A stretch of DNA of 63,144 nucleotides, counting the filler. It is 5 parts of 5 records of this genome, joined end to end, with 100 filler letters (N's around TTAATTAATTAA, not from the genome) between each part and the next. Parts side by side here need not be neighbours in the genome. Positions count along the whole stretch, not along the records: positions 25,250 to 49,114 come from SRR22947725_4919; 4 more parts are not named here. One strand, given 5' to 3'. Below the pieces are notes generated by a model. It searched no databases. It was not told the DNA's origin and saw only the letters and a program-made list of their open reading frames with translations. Numbering within the stretch: position 1 is the stretch's first letter; each line of letters begins with the position of its first letter. Made by a program: the position numbers and the translations under genes. This document shows, one piece after another, positions 25,250 through 48,513 of this stretch.

Positions 25250-25697
25250 TGTTACCCGCGCGAATAGTTTGATCATAAGTGCCATCGAGCAGATTAACTT
25301 TATTGTATTGGGTATTACTCGTTATTTTATTTATTTCAGCCAGAAGAGCCCTAACTTCCATTTGAGCGTTGCTTCGATCCTGGGCAGTATAAATGCCGTT
25401 TTGCATCTGTACTGCAAGTTCTCGCATTCTGCGAATTAATTTACTTATCTCACCAAGAGCTCCGTCTGCTGTTTGAGCCACCGAAATTCCATCTTGAGAG
25501 TTCCTAACTGCCATCTTGATCCCGCCAAGTTGGCTCTGCATTTTATTTGCAACTGCCAATCCAGCGGCATCGTCCGCGGCATTGTTAATGCGCTTGCCTG
25601 ACGATAGGCGTTCCATTGCAGTTTGCATTCTTTCGGCAGCAAGTGTCGCGTAGGTTCGCGCAAGAAGCGCACCCACATTCGTATTAATCATCGTCAT
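25250..25697 (-). CDS. fliC: Flagellin, N-terminal part (truncated by contig end)
   Basis: MTMINTN, RLSSGKRINNAADDAAGLA, RMRELAVQ. Confidence 0.95.
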
Positions 25698-25751
25698 ATC
25701 ATAGCTCCTCAGCTTTTTTCACGACTTAAATGATATGATCCTCGATGTTTC

Positions 25752-25779
25752 CTAACGACACAGATTTAGATTTATTTAG
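25752..25779 (-). promoter_or_regulatory. Sigma28-like promoter
   Basis: CTAAA-N15-GTCGTTAG upstream of the flagellin. Confidence 0.7.
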
Positions 25780-25846
25780 AAAAAAAGTTCAATTTTCGGA
25801 AAAAAATTTTCAATACCGATGTTCATCAAAAAAATGTTATCGTTTA

Positions 25847-27382
25847 TCAGGCTATTAACTCCAGTACAGTGTTTTTCGACGCATTTGCTTGAGCTAGCAT
25901 TGCCATAGAGGCTTGCGCTAGAATTTGTTGTTTTGCCAGCTTTGATGTCTCTACCGTGTATTCAGTGTCTTTTATTCTCGAGCGAGCCTGACGCATGTCC
26001 AACCCCATCATCGAATACCCCTCGATTGCACTGGAATACCGATTAATTAAAGCACCGAGCTCAGCACGTATTTTTGAAGTTTGCTCCATCGAGTAATTCA
26101 ACACATCACTAGCATTTTTAGCCTCCGCTACACTCAAAACTGAAATTTGGGAAACTAGGTGCTGTTGTTCAGCAGGAAGCCGGACGCGGTCGATGGCGAT
26201 ATTATCAATGAACAAGCTCGCGCCAGAAACACCACCTGTCGAATAATCATGCGAACCTGCTATGAAAACAAATTTATAAGTTCCTTCAGTGGTAACTATA
26301 GTTGTGGCTGTGGTCACAGCACTTAAGCTGCCATCAGCTGTCGCTTCTTCGGACTCATCTAAAAGAGTAATCGTGTTTCCATTGCTCTCATCTAATAAAT
26401 ACGCAAACACGTCATAAGCGTCTTTTCCTCCGCCAGCCTGCCAATCAAAAGAGATTTTATCACCAATATTAAATTGCTTTGACGACTCCGAAACAATGTA
26501 AGGCCCGTGAATGATGTCACCACCCCCGGATGGCACTTTCTGCTGTACGTCTGTTGTTCCATCGTTAGAGATCTGAACATTTCCAAACCCAAGTCCTGAA
26601 AAAAGCCTGAGTTTTCCATCTTCAAGTTTCCAGTTATAAGTGCCTTGGATAATTGACCCATCGTCCCCACTACTCGCAGATCCATCATTATTAGTCGCGT
26701 TTGTTGTATCTATAGGAGCATTGTAACCATTAACTAAAGTCGCACCCAACACACCACTCTGCCCAAGTCTTATTTGTTCTTTATAAATTTTCCAGCCATT
26801 AATCGTATCGACATTACCCACTGAGGAAGATACCGTTCCATCATCAAAATCACCATTATCAAATAGCTCTGGCCCGCCCCAGGTTCGGCCTACGGTGCTT
26901 GTACTAAAGGCATCAATTGAAACTGGAAGAACACCTGAACTGCCGCTACCCGAGACAGCAAAAGTACCATCTAACAAAGGAACGCCTGAGTATCTGGTAT
27001 TCACTGCAATCCTGTCAATTTCAGCGACTAAAGCATAAAGCTCTAATTCCATAGAGTCTCTATCTTGCTGCTCATATGTGCCGCTAGCTGATTGAACTGC
27101 AAGATCAGCAAGCTTTTGTTGTACGTTTGTTATTTGATCAAGGGCAGATTCTGCAGTCAGAAGTAAATTTATTGTATCAACGCTATTCCTGACGTTCATA
27201 CCATAATCTTTTATGCTGGCAGTCATTTTGTTTATGACAGCCAAGCCGGCAGCATCATCAGACGCACTATTTATACGTAGCCCAGAAGACAATCTTTCCA
27301 TGGGTACGAGCATATTTTGGTTAGCTTTTAAACTGTAAGTTCTTGCCAATAATGCGGCGGAGTTTGTGTTAATTGCAGTCAC
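25847..27382 (-). CDS. fliC: Flagellin with jelly-roll/carbohydrate-binding-like central insert (GTG start 27382 or TTG 27388)
   Basis: Flagellin N and C domains; insert LFDNGDF...GW...FDWQA...GTYKFVF...LFIDNI. Confidence 0.92.
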   Translation of the reverse strand: MTAINTNSAALLARTYSLKANQNMLVPMERLSSGLRINSASDDAAGLAVINKMTASIKDYGMNVRNSVDTINLLLTAESALDQITNVQQKLADLAVQSASGTYEQQDRDSMELELYALVAEIDRIAVNTRYSGVPLLDGTFAVSGSGSSGVLPVSIDAFSTSTVGRTWGGPELFDNGDFDDGTVSSSVGNVDTINGWKIYKEQIRLGQSGVLGATLVNGYNAPIDTTNATNNDGSASSGDDGSIIQGTYNWKLEDGKLRLFSGLGFGNVQISNDGTTDVQQKVPSGGGDIIHGPYIVSESSKQFNIGDKISFDWQAGGGKDAYDVFAYLLDESNGNTITLLDESEEATADGSLSAVTTATTIVTTEGTYKFVFIAGSHDYSTGGVSGASLFIDNIAIDRVRLPAEQQHLVSQISVLSVAEAKNASDVLNYSMEQTSKIRAELGALINRYSSAIEGYSMMGLDMRQARSRIKDTEYTVETSKLAKQQILAQASMAMLAQANASKNTVLELIA

Positions 27383-27384
27383 CT

Positions 27385-27516
27385 TCAACTGGCCTGATTC
27401 AAAATAGGCCAGTTTTTAGAGGTCAATTGCTCGATTGATGTCTGCATTCTCGCGGCGTTGAATGCTGCGCAGGTTCGCAACAGACGTGCACCCACATTCC
27501 TATAAATCATAGTCAT
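27385..27516 (-). pseudogene. Degenerate flagellin N-terminal ORF (43 aa) positioned as a leader ORF
   Basis: MTMIYRNVGARLLRTCAAFNAARMQTSIEQLTS vs MTMINTNVGALLARTYATLAAERMQTAMERLSS; has its own GAGGAG SD. Confidence 0.8.
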
Positions 27517-27567
27517 CCCACAGCTCCTCAGCTTTCACGACTGCAATGATATGATCCTCGAAGGTCC

Positions 27568-27594
27568 CTAACGACACAGCTTTAGATTTATTTA
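27568..27594 (-). promoter_or_regulatory. Sigma28-like promoter, near-identical to the 25752-25779 copy
   Basis: TAAA-N15-GTCGTTAG. Confidence 0.7.
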
Positions 27595-27616
27595 AAAAAA
27601 ATATTAAATTTAAGAC

Positions 27617-27643
27617 AAAAAAAAACGCCTACTGGCGATTTTT
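27617..27643 (-). terminator. Intrinsic terminator closing the protease-flagellin operon
   Basis: CGCC-agta-GGCG stem followed by a T9 run on the minus strand. Confidence 0.6.
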
Positions 27644-27671
27644 AATTAATAAGTTTGTCCACAAAGTGTTG

Positions 27672-28199
27672 TTATTTGACTAGTTGGGTTGCCCTAATCA
27701 GATTTGCAAAGTGATTTAGCGCTTCATCTTTGCTTTGTTTTTTTAATGCTGAAAAACGAAGGACCGACCAACATGACCCAGCCCTTATTGACGCAGATGC
27801 CTCAACATTTACCGAGCCCTCTGTTTCATGAATTATATAGCTCAAGAAAGCTAACCTACCGTCCAACTGAGGTAATCGTGACTGATTCAAAACTTTAACC
27901 TGTGGGTTAGAAGTTTTGTGTGCCGCGGACACAGTTGATATCATACTTTGCGCTGTTTGTTGCAAAAGGCCCTTTTTGTTAAACAACACCTCTGGGGCGA
28001 ACATAATGGTTGAGTATGACATGTGATCACCAGAATAAACTTTTTGGACATACGTATTCTTCGAACCCAACGACCCTCTCTCAACAAATCCCGAAACATT
28101 ATTGAATTTCAGAATTGCCTCACAAGCAAAAGCCATTGGGGACATCAAGCACCAATAAAAAACAAGTAGCGCTGCCGGCCAATGTCTATAAATATACAT
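27672..28199 (-). CDS. Secreted/periplasmic hypothetical protein coupled to the protease-flagellin
   Basis: TGATG stop/start overlap; signal-peptide-like MYIYRHWPAALLVFYWCLMSPMAFA|C. Confidence 0.75.
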   Translation of the reverse strand: MYIYRHWPAALLVFYWCLMSPMAFACEAILKFNNVSGFVERGSLGSKNTYVQKVYSGDHMSYSTIMFAPEVLFNKKGLLQQTAQSMISTVSAAHKTSNPQVKVLNQSRLPQLDGRLAFLSYIIHETEGSVNVEASASIRAGSCWSVLRFSALKKQSKDEALNHFANLIRATQLVK

Positions 28200-31100
28200 C
28201 ACGAGTCTAACAGCATTAATACAGTTTGTTGCCTTTGTGTGGCCATGTTAATTGCCTGCTGTGCAGCCTGAGATAGAATTTGCTCTTGAGCTAATTTTGT
28301 AGACTCAATTGCCATATCTGTATCGACAACCCGTCCCCGAGCTTGCTGAGTCATCATCGAGGCCTGTGTTTGATTGTCAAGATTGTGACTAAGGCGGTTA
28401 CTTACAGCACCGAGCTGGGCACGCCCTGTTGCGATTTGCTCTAGAGACCGATTTAAAACTGTGATGGCGGCTTGGGCCTCAGCTTGGGTTTTTACACCAA
28501 TGTCTTTCAGTTTCATATTGTTTTCGTTTAAAGCACTTTCACCGTTTGCTACGCCACCAGTTTTGCCGCCCGTTTCAGTGCCAGACAGAGTGGGATCCGC
28601 AGCTCCAGAAGCGAACGTCGAAGTAGCAACAGTATAAATTCCATCACTAAATTTTAAAAACTCAATATTTGTAAGCGTATCAAGGCCCTCGTCTGCTGAA
28701 CCACCGGTATGAGACACTGTTACAGTACCGCTCGCGTTCGAGACAGCATAGTTTGTATAGGCCTCATCATATATCGCCATGTCAACGCCACCGCTACCGT
28801 CGATCGTATCATTGCCACCATTTCCGGTTAATTCATTACCTTTGTTGTTACCGGTGATAATGTCATTACCCCCTCCACCTTTTGCATTTTCAATCCACGT
28901 ATTATGGGCAATGCCAAGGTTTTCTTGACCTCGGTATAGAGCAGTTCTCGTAAAATCTGGGTAATATGAGTTACCAGCAGAGGCCTGCGCATCTTGCGTA
29001 GCAAGCAAAGAGTTAAAAGAGGCTATTTTAGCGGCATCACCTCCCGCGACAGCACTAATCTTATCCGCATCAGTCGTGTAAGTATTGATGGACGAGTAAG
29101 TTCCGGGAGTGAGATCAATAATACTGTGCCGACCATATGCATCAGCAGTCACTGAAGATGCATCTATGGTATCACCTCCCCCAGCATCAGCACTATCTGA
29201 AATTACACGAATTTGTTCATAATTGTTATCAAAGATTTCCTCGGTACCACCCTCACCTGCTCCATAAATCGTGTCGCCAGTACGCGATTCCCAGCCAGTA
29301 TTTCCGTAAATATGTTCGATGGCTTCAATATCAAGAAGGCCCGGGGTAGTGATATGAACTTTATCACCGATAGCAGCGTTTCCACCGCCATCTAACTTGA
29401 TTTTTACATTGCGGTCAGTTTGAGTGTACGTCATTACGGTGTTGCGTTGACGATCCAAATTCAAATCCATTGTACTATCGTCTACGCTTCCCCCGTCAAA
29501 AGGATGGCTCAAACCAAGTGCATGACCAATCTCATGAAGCGCGGTCAAATAGCTATACTCGCCTTTAACAAAATCAATGCCGGCCCCATTCATTTGCGTA
29601 GTGCCATAATACACATCACCACCCTTGGCTGTTGAATTCGGGCCATAAGCATAGGCCGCAGATCCGGAGGGAACAGCATCAGAGAACGCAATCCTTATGT
29701 CACCAATGTTGGTCGCCCCGGACCCATCTTCAACTACCTTACTTAGTGTGAAGGGAGCAGCATCATCCCAAGCCACCATGACCTTATCATGCACAGCTAT
29801 ATTACCAGCATCGGCAGCTGTCATACTAGTTCGAGTGCCTTCTGTGTAGCTGTAAGTTGTCGTATCGTCAGTGCCATCCCAATAAGAATATGACAAATTA
29901 CCGTTGGCATCATCAGCTGCGCCCCCATGAGGAGTGGCATCGCTACCGACGTTGGTCCATTCTCTACCCATGATTAGTGAAGAAAACCCTCCACTGCCAG
30001 CCGCAGGAATATTAAGACCTGAACCACTTGTGTCTTTATCTGTAATTATTGCATTACGAATTTCACCATCTGAAGTTACAACCCCGCCACTTACAGCTAC
30101 CGATCCGGATGATCCAGATGATCCAGATGATCCAGATGATCCATCATTTGCTTGAGCCAAGCAATGGGCACAAGTTCTTGGGTTATGCAAATTTTTTGCA
30201 ATCTCGAGCATCTCGACTTCGATTGCCGCAATTTGGCCTGAAACAGATTGCCTAGTTCCAGTATCTGAATACACATTTACAATTTCTGCAAACTTATCGT
30301 TGGTAAGATTGCCTGAGCTGTGGGACTTAAACTCAATCTCATCCGCGTGAAAAAGTGACCCAATATATTGGGACCTTTCCTTTTCTAATGCTTCAACACG
30401 ATCGCTGATTTGCCCCCGTCGGGTGGTTTCCAGAGCATCTAGACTAGCAGCCTCTTCATAAAGTGTTTTGGTTTTTTCTAAGTTAGCCGAAACTTGTGAC
30501 CACTGATCATCCGTAACTGTTACGGTGGCGTATTGATACCCAACCGATTGAAGCTTGTCTTTAAGAAGCAAAACATTTCCGCCATGATCCTGTTTGAAAA
30601 TGTCACTGCTAACTAGATCTGATAACATGGCCTCACTATCGGTAGATGCCAAAGAACTATAAGAGGTGGCGCTGATCCCAAATTGAGCGGCTAACGAATT
30701 TGCAAAATTAGTGTTAAAATCGGCAGCTGTAGTTGCTATCGGCCCGTCATAATCTCTGCGAACAATCGAACTACTTGCGCCTGTATCTTTAACAAACATG
30801 CTGTTGAGGCTTATTCTAGTGGTCTCAGCATTGGTGTTACCAGACCGAATAGTTTGATCATAAGATCCATCTAAAAGGGCGACATCATTAAATCTTGTAT
30901 TGGCTGCAATTTTATCTATCTCTGCAAGAAGCGCATTTATCTCTAGCTGTGCATTATCACGGTCAGTAGAAGTGTAAACACCGTTGTCCATTTGAACTGC
31001 TAGCTCACGCATCCGTAAAATCATGTTAGAAATTTGGCTCATACCACTTTCAGCGGTCTGAACAAGCGATATGCCATCCTTAGAGTTGCGCATTGCCATC

Positions 31101-31282
31101 TTAATACCGCGGCTTTGACTTTCCATTTTATTGGCAACAGCCAGCCCGGCTGCATCATCAGCAGCGCTGTTGATGCGCTGGCCAGAAGACAGTCGCTCCA
31201 TCGACCGCGTCATTGTGTTGTTTGCCCGCGCAGCGTAAGTGCGAGCCATCAACGCTCCAACATTTGTATTTATGACAGTCAA
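28199..31282 (-). CDS. fliC: Giant flagellin (1027 aa) with an inserted serralysin-like M10 metalloprotease and RTX beta-roll
   Basis: Flagellin termini; HEIGHALGLSH (aa 583-593, nt 29504-29536), TVMTY Met-turn, PGLLDIEAIEHIYG, IENAKGGGGND/GNGGND repeats; TTG start. Confidence 0.93.
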   Translation of the reverse strand: MTVINTNVGALMARTYAARANNTMTRSMERLSSGQRINSAADDAAGLAVANKMESQSRGIKMAMRNSKDGISLVQTAESGMSQISNMILRMRELAVQMDNGVYTSTDRDNAQLEINALLAEIDKIAANTRFNDVALLDGSYDQTIRSGNTNAETTRISLNSMFVKDTGASSSIVRRDYDGPIATTAADFNTNFANSLAAQFGISATSYSSLASTDSEAMLSDLVSSDIFKQDHGGNVLLLKDKLQSVGYQYATVTVTDDQWSQVSANLEKTKTLYEEAASLDALETTRRGQISDRVEALEKERSQYIGSLFHADEIEFKSHSSGNLTNDKFAEIVNVYSDTGTRQSVSGQIAAIEVEMLEIAKNLHNPRTCAHCLAQANDGSSGSSGSSGSSGSVAVSGGVVTSDGEIRNAIITDKDTSGSGLNIPAAGSGGFSSLIMGREWTNVGSDATPHGGAADDANGNLSYSYWDGTDDTTTYSYTEGTRTSMTAADAGNIAVHDKVMVAWDDAAPFTLSKVVEDGSGATNIGDIRIAFSDAVPSGSAAYAYGPNSTAKGGDVYYGTTQMNGAGIDFVKGEYSYLTALHEIGHALGLSHPFDGGSVDDSTMDLNLDRQRNTVMTYTQTDRNVKIKLDGGGNAAIGDKVHITTPGLLDIEAIEHIYGNTGWESRTGDTIYGAGEGGTEEIFDNNYEQIRVISDSADAGGGDTIDASSVTADAYGRHSIIDLTPGTYSSINTYTTDADKISAVAGGDAAKIASFNSLLATQDAQASAGNSYYPDFTRTALYRGQENLGIAHNTWIENAKGGGGNDIITGNNKGNELTGNGGNDTIDGSGGVDMAIYDEAYTNYAVSNASGTVTVSHTGGSADEGLDTLTNIEFLKFSDGIYTVATSTFASGAADPTLSGTETGGKTGGVANGESALNENNMKLKDIGVKTQAEAQAAITVLNRSLEQIATGRAQLGAVSNRLSHNLDNQTQASMMTQQARGRVVDTDMAIESTKLAQEQILSQAAQQAINMATQRQQTVLMLLDS
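30102..30143 (-). repeat. 9-bp tandem repeat encoding a (GSS)n linker
   Basis: About 4.5 copies of GATCCAGAT on the plus strand. Confidence 0.9.
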
Positions 31283-31347
31283 AATTCACCACCGCTAATT
31301 GATTGTGCAAACATGAGTCTGCTTTTTTTATTTAGCCTCACACGTCA

Positions 31348-31375
31348 GTAACGACTGGTCACAAAAAAAAAATAG
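31348..31375 (-). promoter_or_regulatory. Sigma28-like promoter with a T10 tract
   Basis: CTA-T10-GTGACCA-GTCGTTAC; same CTA-to-GTCGTT distance as the 25752-25779 promoter. Confidence 0.55.
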
Positions 31376-31391
31376 CTACAAAGTTTAATTT

Positions 31392-32606
31392 TTATTGCAG
31401 TAGTGTTAGCACAGTCTGCTTGGACTGGTTAGCTTGCGCAAGCATTGCCGAGGCCGCTTGAGCTAAGATTTGATGTTTCGCCAAGACTGTGGTTTCAACT
31501 GCAAAATCTGCATCAGTGATGCGGCCCCTTGCAATTTCAATATTCATTGCAGCTTCAGTTACGCTGTTGATTGAATATTGCATCCGATTTTGCAATGCAC
31601 CCAATTTAGCTTGGTTGGCACCCATCTCAACTAGTGCTTTATCAAGCATTTCAATTGACCGTGTAATATTAGACTCAGACGTAAGATCAACATTGCTTAT
31701 ATTCTTTTCTGCTATTGCTGAGACAGTAAGATGGACAACTTCAACATGCGCTGCACCACCATTTCTTGGGGTGTAAGTCACCTCAATGTCATAAACCCCA
31801 TCCCCGGCCGTTGACCCATTTCCATTTGTATCTGTGGCAGCGCCAGCATCCAATGCCGCTTTACTTGTAATTTTTCCTGTTTTCGGGTCGATATTAAAAA
31901 GAGTGTTGTCGCCACCGGTTGATCCAGTTGTGGTCAACGAAAAAACACCAAGCCCATCATTTTTAAAAGCATCTTTGAACGCGGTACTAAAAAGAGAGGT
32001 GTCTACCGAAACCTCGGTTGACTCAGCAGCGGTAACTTCCTGATCAGTTGCTAAATCATTTCCTCCATCAACTGCTTTTTCAGTTGCGAACATTCCAATC
32101 TTAGCCATTGATGTTGTTGCCGTATTATTGATTGCTACATTGATAACTTCCGCATTTGTGTTGCCGGCCCTTATTTCTTTGTTGTACGTGCCGTCAAGCA
32201 AATTTAGCCCATTAAACTTTGTTGTTTCAGTAATTTTATCGATTTGCTGGAGCAAAGCGTTAACTTCCATCTGAGCATTGTCACGATCTTTTGGTGTGTA
32301 AACGTGGTTATGCATTTGGACTGCAAGCTCACGCATACGAAGGAGCATAGAATTGATCTCATTCATGCTTCCTTCGGCTGTTTGGACAAGAGAAATGCCG
32401 TCTTTTGTATTCCTTATAGCCATCTTCATGCCGAGCACCTGACTGGTCATCTTGCTTGCAACAGCAAGCCCAGCGGCGTCGTCTGAGGCGCTATTAATGC
32501 GCCTCCCTGATGAAAGGCGTTCAAGCGCCTTATTAACAAAGAGTTCAGCTTTTGCGGAATAATGCCGTGCGTTTAACGCACCTATATTGGTGTTGATAAC
32601 GGTCAT
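31392..32606 (-). CDS. fliC: Flagellin with cadherin-like central insert
   Basis: Flagellin termini; GGDNTLFNIDPKTGKITSKAALD...DGVYDIEVT. Confidence 0.93.
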   Translation of the reverse strand: MTVINTNIGALNARHYSAKAELFVNKALERLSSGRRINSASDDAAGLAVASKMTSQVLGMKMAIRNTKDGISLVQTAEGSMNEINSMLLRMRELAVQMHNHVYTPKDRDNAQMEVNALLQQIDKITETTKFNGLNLLDGTYNKEIRAGNTNAEVINVAINNTATTSMAKIGMFATEKAVDGGNDLATDQEVTAAESTEVSVDTSLFSTAFKDAFKNDGLGVFSLTTTGSTGGDNTLFNIDPKTGKITSKAALDAGAATDTNGNGSTAGDGVYDIEVTYTPRNGGAAHVEVVHLTVSAIAEKNISNVDLTSESNITRSIEMLDKALVEMGANQAKLGALQNRMQYSINSVTEAAMNIEIARGRITDADFAVETTVLAKHQILAQAASAMLAQANQSKQTVLTLLQ

Positions 32607-32658
32607 CTCTATGTCCTCACTTAGATTGACGCGCCGAATATTCTCGGCTTCAAGTGAG

Positions 32659-32685
32659 GGAACGACCCAGGTTTAAAAAAGTTAG
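32659..32685 (-). promoter_or_regulatory. Sigma28-like promoter
   Basis: CTAA-N15-GTCGTTCC. Confidence 0.55.
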
Positions 32686-32721
32686 AAAATAAATAAATTA
32701 ATTATTTATTACGATTTTGAA

Positions 32722-32752
32722 CAAAAAAAATTGGACAAAAATTTGTCCAATT
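32722..32752 (-). terminator. Intrinsic terminator after flgL
   Basis: TTGGACAAA/TTTGTCCAA inverted repeat followed by a T-run on the minus strand. Confidence 0.7.
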
Positions 32753-32795
32753 GGTTACTGAGCAAAACCTTTAGTTTTGAAAATTCTTATTTGAG

Positions 32796-34085
32796 CTACC
32801 GCAGATAATCAAACAAACTTTGCTGACCAATTTTACTGAATGCCGCCTGAGCCGCCTCCAGATTTGTCATTTGCCCCTGCAGTTTTGTAATCATCTCTGC
32901 GAGGTCAGTATCATTCAATTTTGAAACATCTCGATCAACGACGAGCTTCCTACCCTCAAGCACGTCTTTTTGCATTCCATTTTTGCTCATCTGCGAGGCT
33001 ATCAAACTTCTTTTGGCCGAGATGGAGTCCATAGCTGCATTCATTGAACTGATATTATAGGCAATCAATTGATCACGGTCTGTCAACTTCACCGTTGGCC
33101 CTATGGCAGCTAGAGACCCATCAAGTTTTGTAAATTCAACGTATGATGTTAATCTTTCGGATGCGCTATCCTGTCCAGATATGGAAATATCCTCGATCTT
33201 AATTTCACCCTCAGTGATGTCAGTCAATATCATATCGCCCGTCGCTGCATCTATTGCCGCAGAAACTGAGGTCTGGCTGGTGAATCTATTGATTTCCGTA
33301 ACCATTGCCCCAAGGTTGTCCCTAGCTACCTCTGCAGTAATCTGAGCTGCACCCGCATTTCCCGATAAGGTGAATGACCATGTTTCTGTTTTAGATGGCA
33401 ACGTGAAATCAAGCCGCGTTTTGTTGCCACCGGTTGCCTGACCCTTAATTTGGGCCCCCGTTTCGATTGAATTCATGGCTGATTGAATGACTTCAAAGAC
33501 TGAACGACGACCATTTGGCGTCTCCACTCTCATGAATGCGGACCCACCGTCAATTCCAGTTAGAGTCGTAAGACTCTCAGAGATCTGCACAGAATGTTGC
33601 CCGCGGTCTCCATTGTAAGCGACTGTTCCATCCACATTTCTTGTAAAGGGCACGTCAACAGAGCTTCTGCCTGCAAATAAAGGCCTGCCCATGCTATCCG
33701 TAGTATTTGCCAAACCAAGTGCGACCTCGGAAAGTTGTTTCAACTCGTTTAAAATTGCTTGGTGGCCAAACCCATCATACACGCCATTGCCAGCTGTTGC
33801 AGTCAGTTCCGTCATTCGTGTCAAAACTGTTGTCATTTCATCAAGGGTCTTGTCACTGAGGTCGAGCCGCATGTTTGCTAAATCTGAATTTTTCGAGAAT
33901 TGTTCAATTAGTGTTCGCTGCTCCCTAGCAGCGGATAAGTTAACCGCGCCCATTGGGTCATCAGAAGCCCGGTTTATCTTGTTTCCAGACGCAATTTTTT
34001 CCTGAATGCCCTGCATGTCAGAGCGCATGCTTTGAAACGCTCTTACCTGCTGTTCGTTAAATAATTTGTTGCTTACACGCATCAC
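32796..34085 (-). CDS. flgL: Flagellar hook-associated protein 3
   Basis: SGNKINRASDDP, ANTTDSMGRPLFAG, C-terminal SLFDYL. Confidence 0.93.
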   Translation of the reverse strand: MMRVSNKLFNEQQVRAFQSMRSDMQGIQEKIASGNKINRASDDPMGAVNLSAAREQRTLIEQFSKNSDLANMRLDLSDKTLDEMTTVLTRMTELTATAGNGVYDGFGHQAILNELKQLSEVALGLANTTDSMGRPLFAGRSSVDVPFTRNVDGTVAYNGDRGQHSVQISESLTTLTGIDGGSAFMRVETPNGRRSVFEVIQSAMNSIETGAQIKGQATGGNKTRLDFTLPSKTETWSFTLSGNAGAAQITAEVARDNLGAMVTEINRFTSQTSVSAAIDAATGDMILTDITEGEIKIEDISISGQDSASERLTSYVEFTKLDGSLAAIGPTVKLTDRDQLIAYNISSMNAAMDSISAKRSLIASQMSKNGMQKDVLEGRKLVVDRDVSKLNDTDLAEMITKLQGQMTNLEAAQAAFSKIGQQSLFDYLR

Positions 34086-34091
34086 TATTTC

Positions 34092-37000
34092 CTAGATAAC
34101 GTCCATTAATGACTGAAAAAGCTCCCTAGCCGTGGTAAGAATTCTCGCCGACGCTTGGTAGGCCTGCTGAAATTCCAACAAAGAGGCCGCTTCCTCGTCA
34201 AGATTAACGCCTGAGAATTCAGCTTCAGCCTCCTCAGCAGCGTTTCTGCTCGCCTCAGCAGACTGAAGTGCGATCTCTCCCGATTGCACAGTTACTCCAA
34301 GTTCAGCAACTATCGTGCCAAAAACCTTTTGGAACCCCCCAGAATTTGAACCATTCACGTCAGCAAATTGTAAATTGAGGATTTTCTCAAGATTGCGAGA
34401 GTCTCCGCCACCATTAGAATTCTTTTTGATAACAAATTCGTCATTGAGCTCCGCATTTCCTTGCATGGTGAACTCAATATTCTCAAAAATTGCGCTTTTA
34501 TTTTGTAATACTCTATTTGCGATTGAATGACCTGTTTCAGCGTCAAAAACCTCAATGAGAGATCCTGCTTCGTTCAAAACCCTAATTTTAAGCTCATCAA
34601 CATCGACTTGAGGTGCGGGTTCATCAAACACCCCACCGAGAGATTGAGCACCAGTTCCAGTGAATATCACTAGCAAATCTTCATGTGGCATATTGGTCAA
34701 TGCAATCGTTGATCCAGCCAGGCTCGTTGCATTTGCGTCAACACGGAATGCAACCCCATCATTTGCTTGCACCTCGATCTTGTTATTGACAAGGCTGACA
34801 GTGTGGTCAGTGACTTTAAAGCCCAGCCGGTCCGAGGGCTTCTCAAGAACAAGATCAGACGACGATGCATCGTATTCAAAAACTAATCGGCCAGTCGTCG
34901 CTGTGGCATTCTCCCAACGCGCAACCAAACCCGTTGTCGCCGGTGTGACAGTCACAGTCCCATTTGAGGCTAAAGAAACAGCAATGTTGTTACCGCCAAA
35001 ATTCATATTTAGTGGCAGCATTCCACTGGCAAGTGTTACAAGTGAGCCAGTTAATCTAGTCGTGCTGCTGTTCAAACCAAAAGAGGACGCATTAGCAGCA
35101 TTACCAGATACCACTGTATCTGGAGTAACAGCTATGATCGCGCCTGACAGGGCACCTCCTCCAAATATCTGGAGCTCATTATTTGCATCAAAATAGGCTG
35201 TAAGCCGTCCAGGCTCCCCGCCATTTACGACAATTTCTCCATTTTCCATCAAGAGCGTATAATTATTACCCTCAAAGGTTACTGAAACGGATGTGCCGTC
35301 AGCTGGAAAGGCTCTCGAATTTGAGGTCGAAACCAGGCTCAGAGATCCCTGCGACCCTGAATTTGCGGCGTCATTAAATTGAAAGCTGTCAACCGTAAAT
35401 GGTTTACCCGTTATTGCACCTGTTAAGATCAGTTGCTCGACTCCGCCAACGACTGCTGTAGTTGCCACAACTCCAAGCTCAGCGGCGTTCACAGCGTTCA
35501 TAATTGCTGTTGTTACATGGCCGGCAGTTGTTGCTGCTGTGTTGCTACCATCGATATTAGTCAAATCCACCGCAACGGATGTACCGTTGATTTTCATTGT
35601 CACCGTATCGGCGCTGGATTGGATTGCTTCCGAACCCACAAACCCGTAGGTCGTGACTTGTTTTGATGCCGCAGCAATATTGCCCGACACAGATGACAAA
35701 GGTGCTTGTTTGCGCAATTCATCAACAATCGCGTGATTAACCCCGGCCTTGCTCAGCGGTGTTACGGAGCTTGCCATAACAGAAGCCGAAAAATTAACTG
35801 CAGATGTATCTGTTGGGATGCTGATCTGGTAAGTGGCCATAGATGCAACTGCAGAGCCACCATCAATCGATGAGACGCTCGGATCAATATCAGCATTAAC
35901 TTCAAAATCAATTGTCTTAATATCGCCAGTTAAATTACTCTCTATTTTTGCAAACCCGCCAAGGTTTTGATCCTGCGCTGCGACCTTCACTTTTAATGGC
36001 GATGTAAGAGTGAAAGACTCACTGGCAGAAAAAACCAGATGACCAGAAAGCCTAGCATTGGCAATTCGATTAACCCCAGCGCCACTGCCCATGGCAACCA
36101 CACCATCTGCTGCAATACCAGCAACAGTAATAGTCAAGTCATTTACACCATCAACGCCACCTAAAGCAGAACCTTGGATCAACATGGTATCATTAATTTG
36201 GTATCCATTCCCTGGCTGGTTGAGGGCAACTGTCAACGTACCATTTACCAGTGTCACGTCAAACGATGCATCCTTGCCACCGCCTACAACGTTCGTCGCG
36301 GTTAAGGTGGTCGTCGCTAAATTTATGGTTCCAAATGAACCCGCAGTTGTAACTGTCGCAATCGGAGTGATTGAAGAAACACCGTCCTCATCAACGATTC
36401 TTGCAGAAAATGGTTGGCTTGTTTCACTTAAATTACTGAAGACGATATCTTCACCAAAGTCACTTTTTAGAATGATGCGAGACTTGTCCTTGGATAAATG
36501 AGCTGAAACTTTTGTGTCATCCGAAACCTGATTAAATTCAGATGCTAAATTTGTGAGGTCAGACGCAGTCACATCAGCTGTAATTCTAACTGGCATTCTA
36601 TTTTCTGACTCAAATTCAAAGTCAAGGGTTCCAGACGAAAAATCAAATAGTTCAGTTACAAGTTTTGCCTCAGCTTTCAGGCCCATTTTGGTAAATGCTA
36701 GGTTGGCATCTTTTGCTACCTGCTTTGCAGATGATCCCTGTTTAACAGGAATTGAGGCAGTTTCACCATTGGTCATAACCAAAGATAGCGTATGTGCTGC
36801 AGTATCATTAATAGGAACAGATGAAGCACTGCCAACTGAGCGAGCGTAAACACCATTACTCCCACTATCAACACGATAAAGGCCGCCAGTTCGGCTTACA
36901 TCTAACCCCATTCCCCGATATGCGTCTTTTTCACCATTCAGATATTCTGCACGGTAGGTCGCATTTGCAGAGAAACCATTTTTTTCGTTGAGGAGGTTAG

Positions 37001-38954
37001 TTATATTTTCTTGAGTTAGTGAGCCACCAGCAATATGGCGCCCTTCACGCGTAAAAATTTGCAAGTCAGATGCACTCACAGAATTCTTCACAATTGCCTC
37101 AATACTTCCCACGCCTGCGGAGATTGAAGGTATTCCACTCCCAGTTGAAACAAAGTTTCCACTGCTTGTCGCAAAAGTCAGGTTGCCCTCTTTGCCAGAG
37201 GCATGGACACCAAGGTCAGCAAGAGATAAATTTGACGCGCTCCTCAAAACTCCACTATTCAGGAGATTAGCAACCTCAGCAACACTCTCCCACACCGATG
37301 ATGAAGAAGAATTTGGATATGCGCTGCTATAACGGACATCGAAACTATGTAAATTATCGTCTGTTGACCCAACTCGCTTAAAAGACAGTTGCTGTAGATT
37401 ATTAATTACCAATCCCTGCAGTTGGAACTCTGCTGTTGCTTGCCTATTAAATGAGGCCATCTTTGCATTTGGCGTCCCAGCTGGTATCACCGCCGCCAAT
37501 CCTGAGGTGATAAAATTTGTAGCCTGAATGGGTGAAAGTGAATTCTTTAAGACCTTGGAAACATCAAGAGGCTCTTCTTTTTTAGTTTGGGTCAGAACCT
37601 CCGTATTAATTGTCGCATCGCTGGTGTTTTTTGTGGAGGGCTCAACAGTTAATAATCCCGACGCAGCAAGTTCCTGTGGCTTGGCAAGCAAAAATTGAAT
37701 GTTTGTAGCCGCTGACACTGCACGCTTAACTTCAAAAAAATCTCCATTACGGGGTGTCCCAGTAATGTCAATTGTAAACCCATCACCCTTTAACTGATCC
37801 CGACCCGATATTGGCCCAGAAAGCCCGTCTCCACGGAGTGTCCATAATTCTGTTGATTTATCAAATTGCGCTGTCAGTGGCCCTGCTGGCAAGTCCAGCG
37901 GTTTAGTTACATTAACCTCTAATTTTAAATCTGCGCTTGCAGATGGACTTAATTCAGCATCCAAGCCAAATGTTGAAAACATAGGCTGTCCCGGTCTCCC
38001 ATTAAGATCAGTGCCACGACTATGTTGAGTGTTAATTTCGCTTGATACTAAGAAGGCTAAGTTATCCACATCACTCTTAATTTCCTCAACAAGCGAATAT
38101 GAGTCTATTGCACCAGCCAAAAGCCCACCTTCAACTTGACTGGTTGGACGCAAGATTGCGCCCTGTCCGACAGTTACCTGAATTTTAGCAAAGGATTGAG
38201 TGTAACCAATCGCACTGTAATTAGTGCCGTCGACGAGTTGTGGGCCCATTCCGCTTGACCCTAGACTAACTTTGGCAGCGCCAAGACCTGAATAACTTGC
38301 GGTCAATGTTGCAAGAGACGACATTTCACTTATAGTCTTATCCCGAAGGTCTAAAAGAGAATTGGGTGTCTGGCCACTTTGCCCCGAAGATAATATTTGT
38401 GAATTTATTGATGCCAGCTCTTTTGTTAAAAGTGACAACTCTTTAACGCCCGCTTCGGTTTGCCCAACAGTGGCAGCCTGAAATTGGTCAAGCTGTTCTG
38501 CTAGGCTGTTAAACGATGCAACAAGTGATTTACCAACCTCAATAGCGACAGTCCGTGACGCTATATCTGTAGGTGATGCAGCAACATCAGCCAGAGATGA
38601 GAAGAAACGACCAATTTGGTCGTTTAGCCCGCCCTTACTCGGAAGTAAGGTATCTTCCAGCTTCGTCAGATTGTTAAGAAAAACATTGATTTTTTGATAG
38701 CTTGAATTAGTCGCATTAGACCTATCCAGCAGAAATCCGTCAAAAGCACGACGAATATCAGCAACCCGAACACCCAGCCCTGATTGATTAGCGAGGCTGG
38801 TGATGCCGCCTTGACTGCCTGAAACCTCCTGCAGATCAGCTTCTCGGCGCTTATAGCCTTCAGTGTTTATGTTGGCTATGTTTTGTCCAGTTACCGCCAG
38901 GGACTGTCGATAACTTTGGATTCCACTTTTGCCAACATCAAATAAACTAGACAT
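34092..38954 (-). CDS. flgK: Flagellar hook-associated protein 1, enlarged (1620 aa)
   Basis: TGQNIANINTEGY, LLDLRD, SGVNLDEEAASLLEFQQAYQASA. Confidence 0.94.
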   Translation of the reverse strand: MSSLFDVGKSGIQSYRQSLAVTGQNIANINTEGYKRREADLQEVSGSQGGITSLANQSGLGVRVADIRRAFDGFLLDRSNATNSSYQKINVFLNNLTKLEDTLLPSKGGLNDQIGRFFSSLADVAASPTDIASRTVAIEVGKSLVASFNSLAEQLDQFQAATVGQTEAGVKELSLLTKELASINSQILSSGQSGQTPNSLLDLRDKTISEMSSLATLTASYSGLGAAKVSLGSSGMGPQLVDGTNYSAIGYTQSFAKIQVTVGQGAILRPTSQVEGGLLAGAIDSYSLVEEIKSDVDNLAFLVSSEINTQHSRGTDLNGRPGQPMFSTFGLDAELSPSASADLKLEVNVTKPLDLPAGPLTAQFDKSTELWTLRGDGLSGPISGRDQLKGDGFTIDITGTPRNGDFFEVKRAVSAATNIQFLLAKPQELAASGLLTVEPSTKNTSDATINTEVLTQTKKEEPLDVSKVLKNSLSPIQATNFITSGLAAVIPAGTPNAKMASFNRQATAEFQLQGLVINNLQQLSFKRVGSTDDNLHSFDVRYSSAYPNSSSSSVWESVAEVANLLNSGVLRSASNLSLADLGVHASGKEGNLTFATSSGNFVSTGSGIPSISAGVGSIEAIVKNSVSASDLQIFTREGRHIAGGSLTQENITNLLNEKNGFSANATYRAEYLNGEKDAYRGMGLDVSRTGGLYRVDSGSNGVYARSVGSASSVPINDTAAHTLSLVMTNGETASIPVKQGSSAKQVAKDANLAFTKMGLKAEAKLVTELFDFSSGTLDFEFESENRMPVRITADVTASDLTNLASEFNQVSDDTKVSAHLSKDKSRIILKSDFGEDIVFSNLSETSQPFSARIVDEDGVSSITPIATVTTAGSFGTINLATTTLTATNVVGGGKDASFDVTLVNGTLTVALNQPGNGYQINDTMLIQGSALGGVDGVNDLTITVAGIAADGVVAMGSGAGVNRIANARLSGHLVFSASESFTLTSPLKVKVAAQDQNLGGFAKIESNLTGDIKTIDFEVNADIDPSVSSIDGGSAVASMATYQISIPTDTSAVNFSASVMASSVTPLSKAGVNHAIVDELRKQAPLSSVSGNIAAASKQVTTYGFVGSEAIQSSADTVTMKINGTSVAVDLTNIDGSNTAATTAGHVTTAIMNAVNAAELGVVATTAVVGGVEQLILTGAITGKPFTVDSFQFNDAANSGSQGSLSLVSTSNSRAFPADGTSVSVTFEGNNYTLLMENGEIVVNGGEPGRLTAYFDANNELQIFGGGALSGAIIAVTPDTVVSGNAANASSFGLNSSTTRLTGSLVTLASGMLPLNMNFGGNNIAVSLASNGTVTVTPATTGLVARWENATATTGRLVFEYDASSSDLVLEKPSDRLGFKVTDHTVSLVNNKIEVQANDGVAFRVDANATSLAGSTIALTNMPHEDLLVIFTGTGAQSLGGVFDEPAPQVDVDELKIRVLNEAGSLIEVFDAETGHSIANRVLQNKSAIFENIEFTMQGNAELNDEFVIKKNSNGGGDSRNLEKILNLQFADVNGSNSGGFQKVFGTIVAELGVTVQSGEIALQSAEASRNAAEEAEAEFSGVNLDEEAASLLEFQQAYQASARILTTARELFQSLMDVI

Positions 38955-38967
38955 GCTGATCTACCGC

Positions 38968-39270
38968 CTATTTGCCAGTAACAGCTGGAGCCAAGTGCCC
39001 AAACTGGGATATCAATGCTTCGGCGATACCTAAATTGACAGTTTTCGCCATTTGCGTTGCACGTTCCTGGTCAAGCATACCTTGATATGTGTCCCCAGCC
39101 TCACTACCCAAAATGTCGTCAGCGAGTTTTGCTGATCGGCCTTGCTTCATAATCTGCTGGATAAACAGAGCTTCAAATTGCTCAGCAACGTCATGGAGGT
39201 CACTTGAAACTTGACGTTTTTCAATTAACGAGGCTGCTAGCTCAGGGCCTACTGTGGTGAGAGCTTCCAA
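38968..39270 (-). CDS. flgJ: Single-domain FlgJ (rod-binding, no muramidase)
   Basis: AEQFEALFIQQIMK...YQGMLDQE...LGIAEAL; 100 aa. Confidence 0.88.
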   Translation of the reverse strand: MEALTTVGPELAASLIEKRQVSSDLHDVAEQFEALFIQQIMKQGRSAKLADDILGSEAGDTYQGMLDQERATQMAKTVNLGIAEALISQFGHLAPAVTGK

Positions 39271-39281
39271 TTTCGTACCTC

Positions 39282-40424
39282 CTATATAATTATGAGCTCG
39301 GCGCGAAGCGAGCCGGCTTCCCGTAAAGCCTCTAAAATCGCGACTAGATCAGACGGTGTTCCACCAACGGCATTTAAAGCATCGACTATGGAAGACAGCT
39401 TAACGCCTGGATCAAATACAAAAGCCTTTGCTAATTCTTCTTCAGCCTCAATTGCTGTGTCAGGTGTAGCCACAGCTTCGCCTGGCACAGTTGCCGCCAC
39501 GCCGTCTGCTAAAGCTAGTCCCTGCGTTTGCGTTACTTGTTGATCTTCATTAACTCTCACCGTTAGGGAACCGTGTGTTACCGCCGCAGGCAAAATCCTC
39601 ACATCACCACCAATAACGATGGTGCCGGTTCGAGCATTTACCACAACTTTTGCGCGAGGCCTGTCTGGGGTCACCTGAATGTTTTCCAACAAGCTCACAA
39701 ATGAAACTTTTTCTGCTGGATTAATTGGCGCCCTTACTTTGATTGATGTTGAGTCTAAAGCGGTTGCAACGCCAGCGCCAAAAACGTCATTGATAGCCTC
39801 AGCAACGCGACCACTGGTGCTAAAATCACCTTGATGGAGGTTAAGCAAAATATTTTCATTCTCTAAAAATGACGTTTCAATCATTCGCTCAACGGAACCA
39901 CCGCCTGGTATGCGACCAACCGTCGGCACATTTACCGTCAAAGATGATCCATCACCGCCAGTGACACCAAGCCCGCCAACCATCAAATTACCTTGAGCTA
40001 TTGCATACGTCTCACCATCCGCGCCAAGTAAAGGGGTCATTAAGAGAGTGCCACCGCGAAGAGATTTTGCTTGCCCAACGGTGGACACAACTACGTCAAG
40101 TTTCTGCCCAGGCTTAATGAACGGCGGCAGGTCAGCAGTAACAATGACTGACGCTGCATTTTTACCATTCATATTTGCGGCACTCGTAACCACGCCAAAT
40201 TGGCTGATCATTGACTGCATTGCTTGCTGTGTGAGAACAGCATTTCCATCGCCACTTCCTGCTAAACCAACCACAAGACCATAACCAACAAGCTGATTTG
40301 ATCTAACACCAGCGATTGAGGTCATATCTTTTAAACGGTCAGCTTTTGCAAAGCTCAACGATAGTGCCAAGCCAGAAAAAACAAGGATCCCTAATACAGA
40401 AACTCTATTAAGCAAGTTGATCAT
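39282..40424 (-). CDS. flgI: Flagellar P-ring protein
   Basis: [28 protein letters not shown]. Confidence 0.96.
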
Positions 40425-40428
40425 CCCT

Positions 40429-41127
40429 CTAAAATGGAGAAACTGTTCGCATTAATTCACTGAGCCATCCTTGCTTTGAAGAGTCAGCAATTTGACCAGT
40501 CCCAGTATATCTAATTTGTGCATCAGCGAGCCTGTTCGATGAGATTATATTGGTCGCTGAGACGTCTTCAGGGCGAACGACACCCCTAACTCTGACATAC
40601 TCATTGCCATTGTTTAGGGTGAGTTCCTTTTGGCCTGCAATTTCCATATTGCCATTTTCAAAAACGCGTACAACGGTAACTGACAAAAGGCCGGAAAAAG
40701 AGTTAGACTGCACGGCATTACCCCCACCAGCAAAACTTTGCGTTGTTCCTGCTGACAACCCTGCGCCATTACCGCCCGCGTCTTTATCAAATCCACCAGT
40801 TAAAATATTTGGCAGACCCGTTGGAAGCGTAACACCAAAGTTGTCAGTTTTTGTTGAGCTAGCGGTTTGTGCTTTTGTGGCCGAATAGGTTTCATTGAAA
40901 CTGACTGTCAAAATATCACCAACACGTCGTGCGCGCTGATCTGTTGCAAAAAGCCCGTTCTGAGATGAATGAAAAATAGCTCCATTTGCAGGCTCAGACG
41001 ATGCCAGTGCAACAGGAGGGTCGACTGGTGTAAAAGCCTGCCCCTCTATATTTGAAACATAGGATGAGCAACCTGTTGTCATAAAAAACATGAAAATGGG
41101 GATATGTTTGAGAGTTGACAATTTCAT
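40429..41127 (-). CDS. flgH: Flagellar L-ring lipoprotein
   Basis: Lipobox-like [25 protein letters not shown]. Confidence 0.95.
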
Positions 41128-41158
41128 TTAAAAAAACACCTTATTACAAAACAAAAGA

Positions 41159-41947
41159 TTAAATATTTTGAGCAATAAAGCGCATCATTTCATCAACTGA
41201 TGTAATTGTCTTTGAACTCACCTCATATGCACGCTGGGTTTCAATCATGTCTACAAGTTCTTGAACAACATTCACATTTGAACTTTCAAGTGACCCCTGG
41301 ACAACTCGTCCCATACCCTCAGCAAAGGGGTTTGCAATGATTGGCGCCCCACTCGCAGGGGTCTCAGTAAACATGCTCTCACCATTGGGCTGCAAGCCTT
41401 GCCGGTTTACAAAGTCTGCCAAGGTGATTTGGCCCACTTCTTGGGCATCGACATTACCTGGCGTTTGGACGGTCACAATACCATCTGAAGCAACCGTAAT
41501 CGTTGAAGTGTCTGCTGGGATTTGAATTTCAGGCTGAATAGGATAGCCGCTGGGAGTCACAACAGTGCCCTCTGAATTTCTCATGAAAGCTCCGCTCCGG
41601 GTGTAGCCAATTTGACCATCAGGCATCAGAATCTGGAAGAAGCCGTCACCTTCAATCGAAACATCAAGAGAATTGCCAGTATTTATGAGGCTGCCTTGCG
41701 AGTGCATTTTGCTCGTGTTTAAGAGGCGCGTTCCCGTTCCAACGGAGAGACCAGATGCGAGACTTGTATTCTCTGATGTATTCTCACCAGCACCCCGCAG
41801 AACCTGATAAAGTAATGACTCAAAATTTGTTCTATCTGATTTAAAACCAGTTGTATTCACGTTTGCAAGGTTGTTTGCAATAACTTGCATCTTGATTTGT
41901 TGTGAATTCAAGCCAGTTTTGGCAACGTGCATGGCAAAAGTAGACAT
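41159..41947 (-). CDS. flgG: Distal rod protein
   Basis: ATG 41947 with GGAG SD; ANNLANVNTTGFK, LESSNVNVVQELVDMIETQRAYE. Confidence 0.95.
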   Translation of the reverse strand: MSTFAMHVAKTGLNSQQIKMQVIANNLANVNTTGFKSDRTNFESLLYQVLRGAGENTSENTSLASGLSVGTGTRLLNTSKMHSQGSLINTGNSLDVSIEGDGFFQILMPDGQIGYTRSGAFMRNSEGTVVTPSGYPIQPEIQIPADTSTITVASDGIVTVQTPGNVDAQEVGQITLADFVNRQGLQPNGESMFTETPASGAPIIANPFAEGMGRVVQGSLESSNVNVVQELVDMIETQRAYEVSSKTITSVDEMMRFIAQNI

Positions 41948-41987
41948 TTGATTTATAGCTCCAGAGTTTAGGTTGGAGCTTATATTC

Positions 41988-42004
41988 AGCAATAATCATG
42001 CCAA
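41988..42004 (-). promoter_or_regulatory. Sigma54 promoter of the flgGHIJKL unit
   Basis: TTGGCATGATTATTGCT: GG-N10-GC. Confidence 0.85.
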
Positions 42005-42010
42005 CACGCT

Positions 42011-42781: not shown

Positions 42782-42827
42782 CTTGAAAAGATCCTATACA
42801 GATGATGAGCAGTTCTAAGCAGCAAGA

Positions 42828-46868: not shown

Positions 46869-46929
46869 TTAAGTTAACTCCTGATGGACATCGTATTTCT
46901 TAAAACCAGATCTAATAATTCGAGCAAGG

Positions 46930-47616: not shown

Positions 47617-47638
47617 TACTCAGTCTCCCAACTATCCC

Positions 47639-48444: not shown

Positions 48445-48496
48445 TTACCGGGTCAGTCCAAAATAACTAGAGTTTCTCAACCAAAAACAGTCAATC

Positions 48497-48513
48497 TTGG
48501 TGTGGAAATTGCA
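48497..48513 (+). promoter_or_regulatory. Possible sigma54 promoter for the divergent ORF
   Basis: TTGGTGTGGAAATTGCA: GG-N10-GC with a weaker -24 box. Confidence 0.45.

Follow-up and report, generated by a model that had tools for sequence, protein, structure and literature searches.

How does a marine flagellum come to carry what appears to be a calcium-dependent protease of the serralysin type? Serralysins are the standard example of a type I secretion substrate that folds with calcium, and to our knowledge the gluzincin flagellinolysins are the only protease family represented in proteolytic flagella so far. We analysed a 63,144-nucleotide stretch of DNA (the window) in which one gene (28199..31282, minus strand, stop codon included) encodes a 1027-amino acid (aa) flagellin containing a domain that we call P, a serralysin-type protease and a beta-roll. 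The carrier is a SAR116 (Candidatus Puniceispirillum-like) marine alphaproteobacterium. We consider it likely that the product is a filament flagellin that displays an active serralysin-type endopeptidase and is exported unfolded via the flagellar type III system. An earlier sequence-only reading had proposed a flagellin enclosing a complete serralysin; the P domain at aa 185-368, the Gly/Ser linker that follows it and the origin of the window from five contigs did not figure in it.

A serralysin-type module between flagellin termini

A single open reading frame (ORF) with a TTG start spans the gene; all coordinates below are window positions, with features on the minus strand. Its two ends are those of a flagellin. 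The N-terminal D0/D1 helices (aa 1-142, 30857..31282) match Pfam Flagellin_N over aa 4-140 with 135.2 bits against a cut-off of 26.6 (E 2e-39), and the same region matches solved polar flagellins at E 3e-46; the C-terminal D1/D0 helices (aa 936-1027, 28202..28477) match Flagellin_C over aa 943-1025 of 1027 with 47.3 bits against a cut-off of 23. Between them, the surface-exposed hypervariable region has given way to a module in three parts (P domain, linker and two-domain protease), listed here as four segments: the alpha/beta P domain (aa 185-368, 30179..30730), delimited by an AlphaFold2 (AF2) model and by conservation; a Gly/Ser-rich linker containing GSSGSSGSSGSSGS (aa 369-425, 30008..30178), disordered as judged from model confidence and sequence; a metzincin catalytic domain (aa 426-665, 29288..30007), placed by Pfam Peptidase_M10, serralysin alignment and a structural match from residue 430; and a serralysin C-terminal domain with beta-roll (aa 666-900, 28583..29287), placed by Pfam Peptidase_M10_C and structural alignment. 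Peptidase_M10 covers aa 474-604 (27.0 bits, cut-off 24) and Peptidase_M10_C aa 665-731 (24.7 bits, cut-off 20.7), so that all four families of the anticipated architecture, Flagellin_N, Peptidase_M10, Peptidase_M10_C and Flagellin_C, score above their Pfam cut-offs.

The active-site residues stand where a serralysin would have them. The zinc site HEIGHALGLSH (29504..29536) supplies H583, catalytic E584, H587 and H593 and is followed by P594, and the Met-turn TVMTY (29426..29440) supplies M617 and Y619; in serralysins, the tyrosine after the Met-turn is the fifth zinc ligand. The sequence-only reading had listed nine serralysin motifs between the flagellin termini, and we recovered 9/9 in its order across residues 527-807: GDIRIAF (527-533), AYAYGP (543-548), GGDVYY (554-559), HEIGHALGLSH (583-593), TVMTY (615-619), PGLLDIEAIEHIYG (647-660), RTGDTIYG (667-674), DAGGGDTID (699-707) and IENAKGGGGND (797-807). 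Four RTX-type nonapeptides follow at aa 802-837 (28772..28879), GGGGNDIIT, GNNKGNELT, GNGGNDTID and GSGGVDMAI, which align to serralysin positions 318-367. When the insert alone was used as query, it matched serralysin 1sat at E 3.8e-21 in two stretches, residues 502-714 against chain positions 93-300 (catalytic domain and start of the C-terminal domain) and residues 787-836 against 318-367 (the RTX turns). In this alignment 1sat has the corresponding motif opposite HEIGHALGLSHP (583-594), and TVMTY has its Met and Tyr on the serralysin Met-turn residues, a correspondence of motif and alignment that, at the level of sequence, is far beyond chance.

Structure prediction points the same way. AF2 was run on the full protein with a 107-row alignment and gave a mean predicted local distance difference test score (pLDDT) of 70.6 and a predicted template modelling score (pTM) of 0.64. 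Confidence over the protease and roll (414-915) was mostly 72-97 with short low-confidence loops, reaching ~90-97 in the C-terminal domain, where regular short strands were modelled at 799-837; it was ~75-92 in the P domain (185-368) and below 50 in the linker (369-413). The top 25 Foldseek matches in the PDB were all serralysin-family entries (AprA, PrtC, serralysin and psychrophilic proteases; E 1e-17 to 2e-14), with catalytic domains of matrix metalloproteases (MMPs) coming next at E ~1e-5. VIA-align superposed the model on the same 25/25 entries with Z 19.7-21.1, a root-mean-square deviation of 3.3-4.5 A and 27-32% identity over 291-337 residues, as compared with Z ~10 for MMPs, which aligned with residues 435-660 only. 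Because the serralysin alignments pair model residues ~430-897 with nearly whole chains, ending at model residue 892-897 against chain residue ~445-478, the insert is predicted to contain both serralysin domains. The Pfam families, the 1sat alignment and the Foldseek and VIA matches thus bear out the earlier assignment to the M10B (serralysin-type) metzincins, and the superposition on serralysin and AprA that had been proposed as a check was obtained.

The P domain has no such counterpart. Folded alone by AF2 (aa 185-385, 80-row alignment), it reached a pLDDT of 91.9 and a pTM of 0.86, forming a helical hairpin packed on a beta-sheet. Foldseek returned 0 PDB matches at E<=0.001 (best E 0.21), and an exhaustive VIA search over 48,161 chains returned 0 with Z>=5, peaking at Z 4.5 for the helical hairpin only; on this model the P domain is without a structural match found, which is no proof of a new fold. 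Across 80 aligned sequences the only invariant P-domain residues are E300, S304, H366, C371 and C374. The last three form an H-x4-C-x2-C motif at the end of the domain (30161..30187) that is invariant in 28/28 and 80/80 aligned sequences, and C371 and C374 are the sole cysteines of the 1027-aa protein, with the same lone pair present in relatives of every class. Such a motif could bind a metal, form a disulfide or act as a latch resembling a cysteine switch; in the cysteine switch of MMP zymogens, a cysteine of the upstream domain ligates the catalytic zinc and holds the enzyme latent. A complex prediction of P (185-400) against the protease (414-915) with zinc scored 0.00, in a run in which alignments were unused and the partner fold was uncertain, and it is neutral on whether the two dock.

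Reality, relatives and descent of the fusion

The window is a concatenate of five contigs, joined by linkers of 44 N, TTAATTAATTAA and 44 N at 15770-15869, 25150-25249, 49115-49214 and 55154-55253. The G+C contents of these contigs are 0.32, 0.61, 0.44, 0.33 and 0.30, values that clearly mark the bin as mixed, and genes outside 25250-49114 therefore provide no context for the flagellar locus. We took 25250..49114 (23,865 bp) alone as the true context. A concatenated window and a bin with 30-61% G+C are what one might expect if flagellin and serralysin genes had been wrongly joined in assembly or binning, but the gene lies wholly within this one contig. Near-identical DNA occurs in 13 runs from seven studies (seawater, marine and estuary metagenomes), and contigs from four of the 23 listed runs were placed on the gene: X1 and X4 (DNA), X14 and X16 (RNA). 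X1 contributes a 2653-nt contig over 28662..31311 and X4 contributes contigs over 28145..30143 and 30114..31455, which together, from two studies other than our own source, span all three junctions, flagellin-N/P, P/protease and roll/flagellin-C. No joints within the gene were reported in the X1 and X4 contigs, and the sole indels there lie near 29716-29724, where two alternative insertions each add up to 3 nt. A chimeric junction, one of the outcomes that would have refuted the sequence-only reading, was thus not found at any domain boundary in these contigs.

The same architecture recurs in other genomes. The closest named genome, a Candidatus Puniceispirillum metagenome-assembled genome (MAG), encodes a protein that is 63% identical across residues 1-1025; within the MAG's family, 20/96 species-representative genomes match at E<=1e-10 and 4/96 carry the full form in one open frame (902-1016 aa, 57-65% identity over the whole query). 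The isolate LSUCC0226, whose genome is closed, has a further ortholog (P0041, 1007 aa, recorded as 'flagellin [Alphaproteobacteria bacterium LSUCC0226]') on a contig of 2,678,285 bp. Given the bridging contigs from two studies, 51/263 relatives of several sources with the full architecture and the isolate ortholog, we rejected an assembly chimera, the probability of which we consider vanishingly small.

We then asked how widely the module occurs and whether its active site has been retained. With residues 440-900 as query, 1022 proteins matched at E<=0.001, of which 120 were listed, and the best among the listed relatives were ~1000-aa flagellins of several sources; more distant forms came from SAR116, Parvibaculales and Burkholderiales MAGs. 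We retrieved 263 relatives and classed them with profile hidden Markov models built from first-pass hits. The full Flagellin_N + P + protease + Flagellin_C form, whose frequency the sequence-only reading had left to be counted, accounts for 51 of them, with HExxHxxGxxH and MxY in 51 and H-x4-C-x2-C in 50. P + protease + Flagellin_C without the N-terminal part (C-only) accounts for 70 (catalytic motifs in 69, cysteine motif in 65), P + protease only for 36 (36 and 36), classical protease-only forms for 98 (74 and 0) and truncated entries for eight (6 and 2). Every full-flagellin, C-only and free P-protease form thus has the P domain, always ahead of the protease, against 0/98 classical forms; in total 159/263 retrieved proteins bear it. 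When 44 cluster representatives were chosen from 150 listed, 21 had a Pfam Flagellin_C match, and P0145 (33% identical) was the only one more that also had Flagellin_N.

Among seven full-form orthologs, the Flagellin_N segment is 83-99% and the Flagellin_C segment 73-100% identical, compared to 50-79% for the P, catalytic and roll regions; the linker is the least conserved segment in most comparisons. A conserved core with a variable surface is the usual flagellin pattern at the sequence level, here with the active-site residues fixed even where the outer region has drifted to 50-60% identity. In an alignment of 28 sequences hand-picked from the 120 listed, M617 and Y619 are invariant and the zinc motif is intact in 27/28.

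This conservation bears on whether the module might be dead or latent and serve as a structural, adhesive or thickening outer domain. In many flagellins the outer domain has a structural role, and no similarity to enzymes is reported for the giant flagellins examined to date (PMC6248924); moreover, P, which is conserved and holds the cysteine pair, could lock the enzyme permanently, and one relative has lost the second zinc histidine. Yet zinc ligands, Glu, Met and Tyr are kept in 156/157 full-length P-bearing proteins, down to ~30-33% identity, a retention that a merely structural domain under neutral drift is unlikely to produce. We accordingly regard an inactive module as quite improbable and favour a working endopeptidase.

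For descent, we built a FastTree phylogeny of the protease module from 95 hand-chosen rows (15/51 full, 41/70 C-only, 29/36 P + protease and 10/98 P-less); its support values are all local. With the 10 P-less proteins as root, the P-bearing proteins form one clade (support 99), and 14 SAR116-type flagellins form one clade (support 100) nested in C-only groups (supports 95 and 96), while several deep forks are poorly supported. The nested position of the full flagellins suggests that their direct ancestor was a P-bearing protease already equipped with a flagellin-like C-terminus, and no classical type I secreted serralysin. The C-only proteins (P0061-P0174, ~780-990 aa) start directly at the P domain, and some are annotated 'flagellin'. 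Four N-less loci that we examined lie outside core flagellar operons, three of them near motility genes (motA and rpoN; motB; a 1134-aa flagellin), and none stands alongside ABC transporter, membrane fusion protein or outer membrane factor (ABC/MFP/OMF) genes of type I secretion. The last of these neighbours, in a Burkholderiaceae MAG (MED-G174, L006 1623-5024, minus strand), is a giant flagellin with no recognised outer-domain family and sits ~2 kb from the P-domain protease gene. A local hhalign comparison of free P-proteases (33/36) with 121 C-bearing proteins gave a probability of 64% and E 6.5e-5 over 99 columns, weak for helical sequence, which is suggestive but weak evidence for a cryptic flagellin C-terminus in the free forms.

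The earlier proposal of a type I secretion protease rerouted through flagellar export therefore holds in part. The protease is of the serralysin (M10B) type, but a direct rerouting is too simple: the flagellins nest in a P-bearing clade in which 70/263 relatives are C-only and 36/263 have P and protease only, none of the four N-less loci lies beside type I secretion genes, and the insert brings a P domain and a linker as well.

The same relatives lend weight to an alternative in which the protein is a secreted protease: its flagellin ends would chiefly give the flagellar type III system and its chaperone something to take hold of for export, and most molecules would be released as monomers or confined to special positions. 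The C-only relatives lack a normal D0/D1 core and 69/70 keep the catalytic motifs, the full flagellins are nested among them, the outer module of ~800 aa is very bulky, and three ordinary flagellins at the locus could build the filament by themselves. However, the complete D0/D1 is strongly conserved and its Pfam scores are strong, as expected from selection for polymerisation, and flagellins of >1000 aa do form filaments (PMC6248924, available text). We consider a released protease unlikely and retain the filament flagellin as the preferred reading. A broader proposal, which we put forward tentatively and hold to be rather doubtful, is that the whole P-bearing clade leaves the cell via the flagellar type III system using flagellin-derived helices, that one lineage gained a full D0/D1, and that P is a latency or folding device; the P domain would then be a cysteine-switch-like cap or metal site silencing the enzyme until it is assembled outside.

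Proposed function and setting of the gene

For the filament flagellin we envisage the following course. The flagellin-protease would be expressed alongside the other flagellins, driven by a promoter-like box of the flagellin type that belongs to this gene, pass unfolded through the flagellar type III channel by virtue of its intact D0/D1 termini, and polymerise into a filament that probably contains the locus's three ordinary flagellins as well. It would fold only outside the cell, binding Ca2+ in the roll and Zn2+ in the active site, so that the filament would show many active endopeptidase copies cleaving proteins and peptides in seawater or on particles. Filament incorporation, the export route and proteolytic activity are what we infer from the architecture and from established knowledge of flagellins, RTX rolls, giant flagellins (PMC6248924) and flagellinolysins (PMC5595980).

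Sequences from RNA libraries are consistent with transcription in the sea, although they are no proof of it. Six runs from four studies contain 25-49% of the gene's sampled words. Contigs of X14 cover 28/30 and those of X16 15/30 bins of the examined stretch (two studies), including a 936-nt X14 contig over 28581..29516 and another that crosses the boundary with the downstream 176-aa ORF; the bins left uncovered are no sign that transcripts are lacking. The promoter-like box, GTCGTTAC (31348..31355), lies 73 nt upstream of the start codon and is common to other flagellin genes: GTCGTT[AC][GC] occurs in five copies on the coding strand of the contig versus a shuffle mean of 1.2, and 4/5 copies stand 60-73 nt upstream of flagellin starts, that of the flagellin-protease gene included. 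From sequence we infer a shared flagellin promoter. A scan of 25250-34200 for sigma-70 promoters and terminators found no more of them than in shuffled sequence.

Several observations weigh against a filament-borne active serralysin. Peptidase_M10 and Peptidase_M10_C exceed their Pfam cut-offs only narrowly, and HemolysinCabind at aa 802-835 scores 19.0 bits, under its cut-off of 23. The beta-roll is short, with four nonapeptides only. NCBIfam Zn_serralysin scores 111.3 bits against a cut-off of 500 and SapA 115 bits against 1200, and since both fall far under the curated cut-offs, the insert is by sequence a divergent serralysin relative and no ordinary member. In the AF2 model the D0/D1 helices have a pLDDT of 36-76, and the model is uninformative on how the module packs against the filament core. 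The relative without the second zinc histidine, P0119 (992 aa), reads HEIGQSLGLSH and is a probable inactive variant in an otherwise strictly conserved family. The three other flagellin genes mean that the flagellin-protease could be a minor or conditional component, and RNA libraries can carry DNA, with contigs that show neither strand nor level.

The genetic setting is a flagellar one. All genes of the contig are on the minus strand, in the order flgB, flgC, flgD, flgE, flgF, flgG, flgH, flgI, flgK and flgL, followed by a 404-aa flagellin, the M10-flagellin, the 176-aa ORF, a 513-aa flagellin and a partial fourth flagellin. FlgE, the hook protein (42828-46868, 1346 aa), and FlgK, the hook-filament junction protein (34092-38954, 1620 aa), are both giant and contain long stretches without a Pfam family; the whole axial structure of the lineage may be unusually thick or decorated. 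The gene order is syntenic with that of the Candidatus Puniceispirillum MAG (L001), and identity is 94% for flgK, 91% for the 404-aa flagellin and 94% for the fourth flagellin, but only 63% for the M10-flagellin (L001 8398-11328). The contrast between 63% and the flanking 91-94% points to fast divergence, recombination or allele exchange of the M10-flagellin.

Immediately upstream, the ordinary 404-aa flagellin (31392..32606, by Pfam) has a sub-threshold Pfam match to PepSY at aa 217-248 (18.6 bits, cut-off 24; E 0.0023). PepSY is a peptidase-propeptide and inhibitor domain; the match is probably chance, though curious beside a protease-bearing flagellin.

Downstream, a 176-aa signal-peptide protein (27672..28202) begins with a GTG start that overlaps the TGA stop of the flagellin. 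Its signal peptide and cysteines are conserved, and it has 117 homologs, nearly all ~175 aa. It has no Pfam or NCBIfam family, and among the 117 homologs a Pfam family occurs in one fused entry only; a feature-based comparison gave a weak lead to DUF4946 (0.95, 157 shared features). A homolog also lies downstream of the ortholog in L001, and such homologs were found beside close SAR116-type orthologs only. That this protein might be a protease inhibitor or helper is an idea we mention without claiming it.

Further along lie the 513-aa flagellin (25847..27388, by Pfam), whose outer region of ~280 aa has no Pfam family match and is unassigned, and the N-terminal part of the fourth flagellin (25250..25697), which has Pfam Flagellin_N and is cut at the contig end, where the linker lies. 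On the 5' side of the 513-aa flagellin gene (25847-27671) there is a decayed, out-of-frame copy of the fourth flagellin's first 42 codons (MTMIYRNVGARLL...), accompanied by a copy of that gene's promoter-like box, and the 513-aa gene is absent from L001. Taken together, the two copies and the absence make this gene look like a recent insertion that duplicated its neighbour's 5' end.

Comparison with known systems

Like the serralysins (M10B; 1sat, 1kap, 1k7g), the module has HEXXHXXGXXHP, a Met-turn with Tyr and a fold of two domains, the second with a GGxGxD beta-roll. The classical enzymes, ~470 aa long, stand alone and leave the cell by type I secretion via a C-terminal signal, and their genes often adjoin transporter and inhibitor genes. 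In contrast, the domain described here is internal, the C-terminus of the protein is flagellin D0, and the protease has a shorter roll and is preceded by a P domain bearing H-x4-C-x2-C. No ABC/MFP/OMF transporter families were found among the genes of the 23.9-kb contig. Closer counterparts are the C-only P-proteins of SAR116, Parvibaculales and Burkholderiales MAGs, which are 30-45% identical and likewise combine a P domain and H-x4-C-x2-C with the protease and roll. These lack the N-terminal D0/D1, lie outside core flagellar operons and are annotated 'flagellin' or 'hypothetical'; with the P domain itself, they raise the question of the secretion route of such proteases. The protein also resembles giant flagellins in exceeding 1000 aa, in its marine bacterial host and in its very large outer region; those flagellins can build thick filaments (PMC6248924).

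We found no description of an M10 or serralysin flagellin in the literature, with the supplements of PMC11532411 and PMC5595980 outside the scope of the search. M10 (other than M101), serralysin and metzincin have 0 occurrences in the available main texts of PMC5595980 and PMC7643111, and M10 is not among the top ten hypervariable-region domains in Table 1 of PMC5595980. In the available text of PMC11532411, a 2024 survey of flagellar outer domains, serralysin, metallo- and RTX have 0 occurrences, and a 'protease' cluster is mentioned only via its Supplementary Fig. 5B-D. The main text of a SAR116 ecophysiology preprint (10.1101/2025.01.06.631592), as available, has 0 occurrences of flagell-, motil-, protease or peptidase. 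The sequences are already in databases as 'flagellin', and the new part appears to be the recognition of their nature. SAR116 is a ubiquitous clade of surface-ocean bacterioplankton (same preprint, available part), and, if the reading is true, a protein-digesting propeller bears on bacterial access to dissolved and particulate protein. It would also give one 'giant' marine flagellin a concrete, testable function, with an ortholog in the cultured isolate LSUCC0226.

The nearest functional parallel is with the flagellinolysins, FliA(H) of Clostridium haemolyticum and the Hylemonella gracilis flagellin (MEROPS M101; PMC5595980 and PMC7643111, available texts), which indicate that a protease in the flagellin hypervariable region can act on filaments (PMC5595980). 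Like them, the present protein places a zinc metallopeptidase in the hypervariable region between intact D0/D1, in a carrier that has other flagellins. Flagellinolysins are gluzincins, distant kin of the M9 collagenases (PMC5595980, available text). Pfam returned no M9-type or flagellinolysin-type family for the present protein, metzincin families being the only peptidase families returned, and no collagenase was among its top 50 structural matches. The third zinc ligand of flagellinolysins is a Glu, whereas here it is His593 within HExxHxxGxxH, with a Met-turn and Tyr in addition; beyond what flagellinolysins have, the protein bears a serralysin C-terminal Ca2+ beta-roll, a P domain and a long disordered linker. 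The independent origin that the sequence-only reading had suggested is supported by this difference of clan, metzincin versus gluzincin (PMC5595980). A second, unrelated protease clan has thus been built into flagellin, and it would follow that the flagellar channel can carry a serralysin-type domain and that filaments came to display enzymes on more than one occasion.

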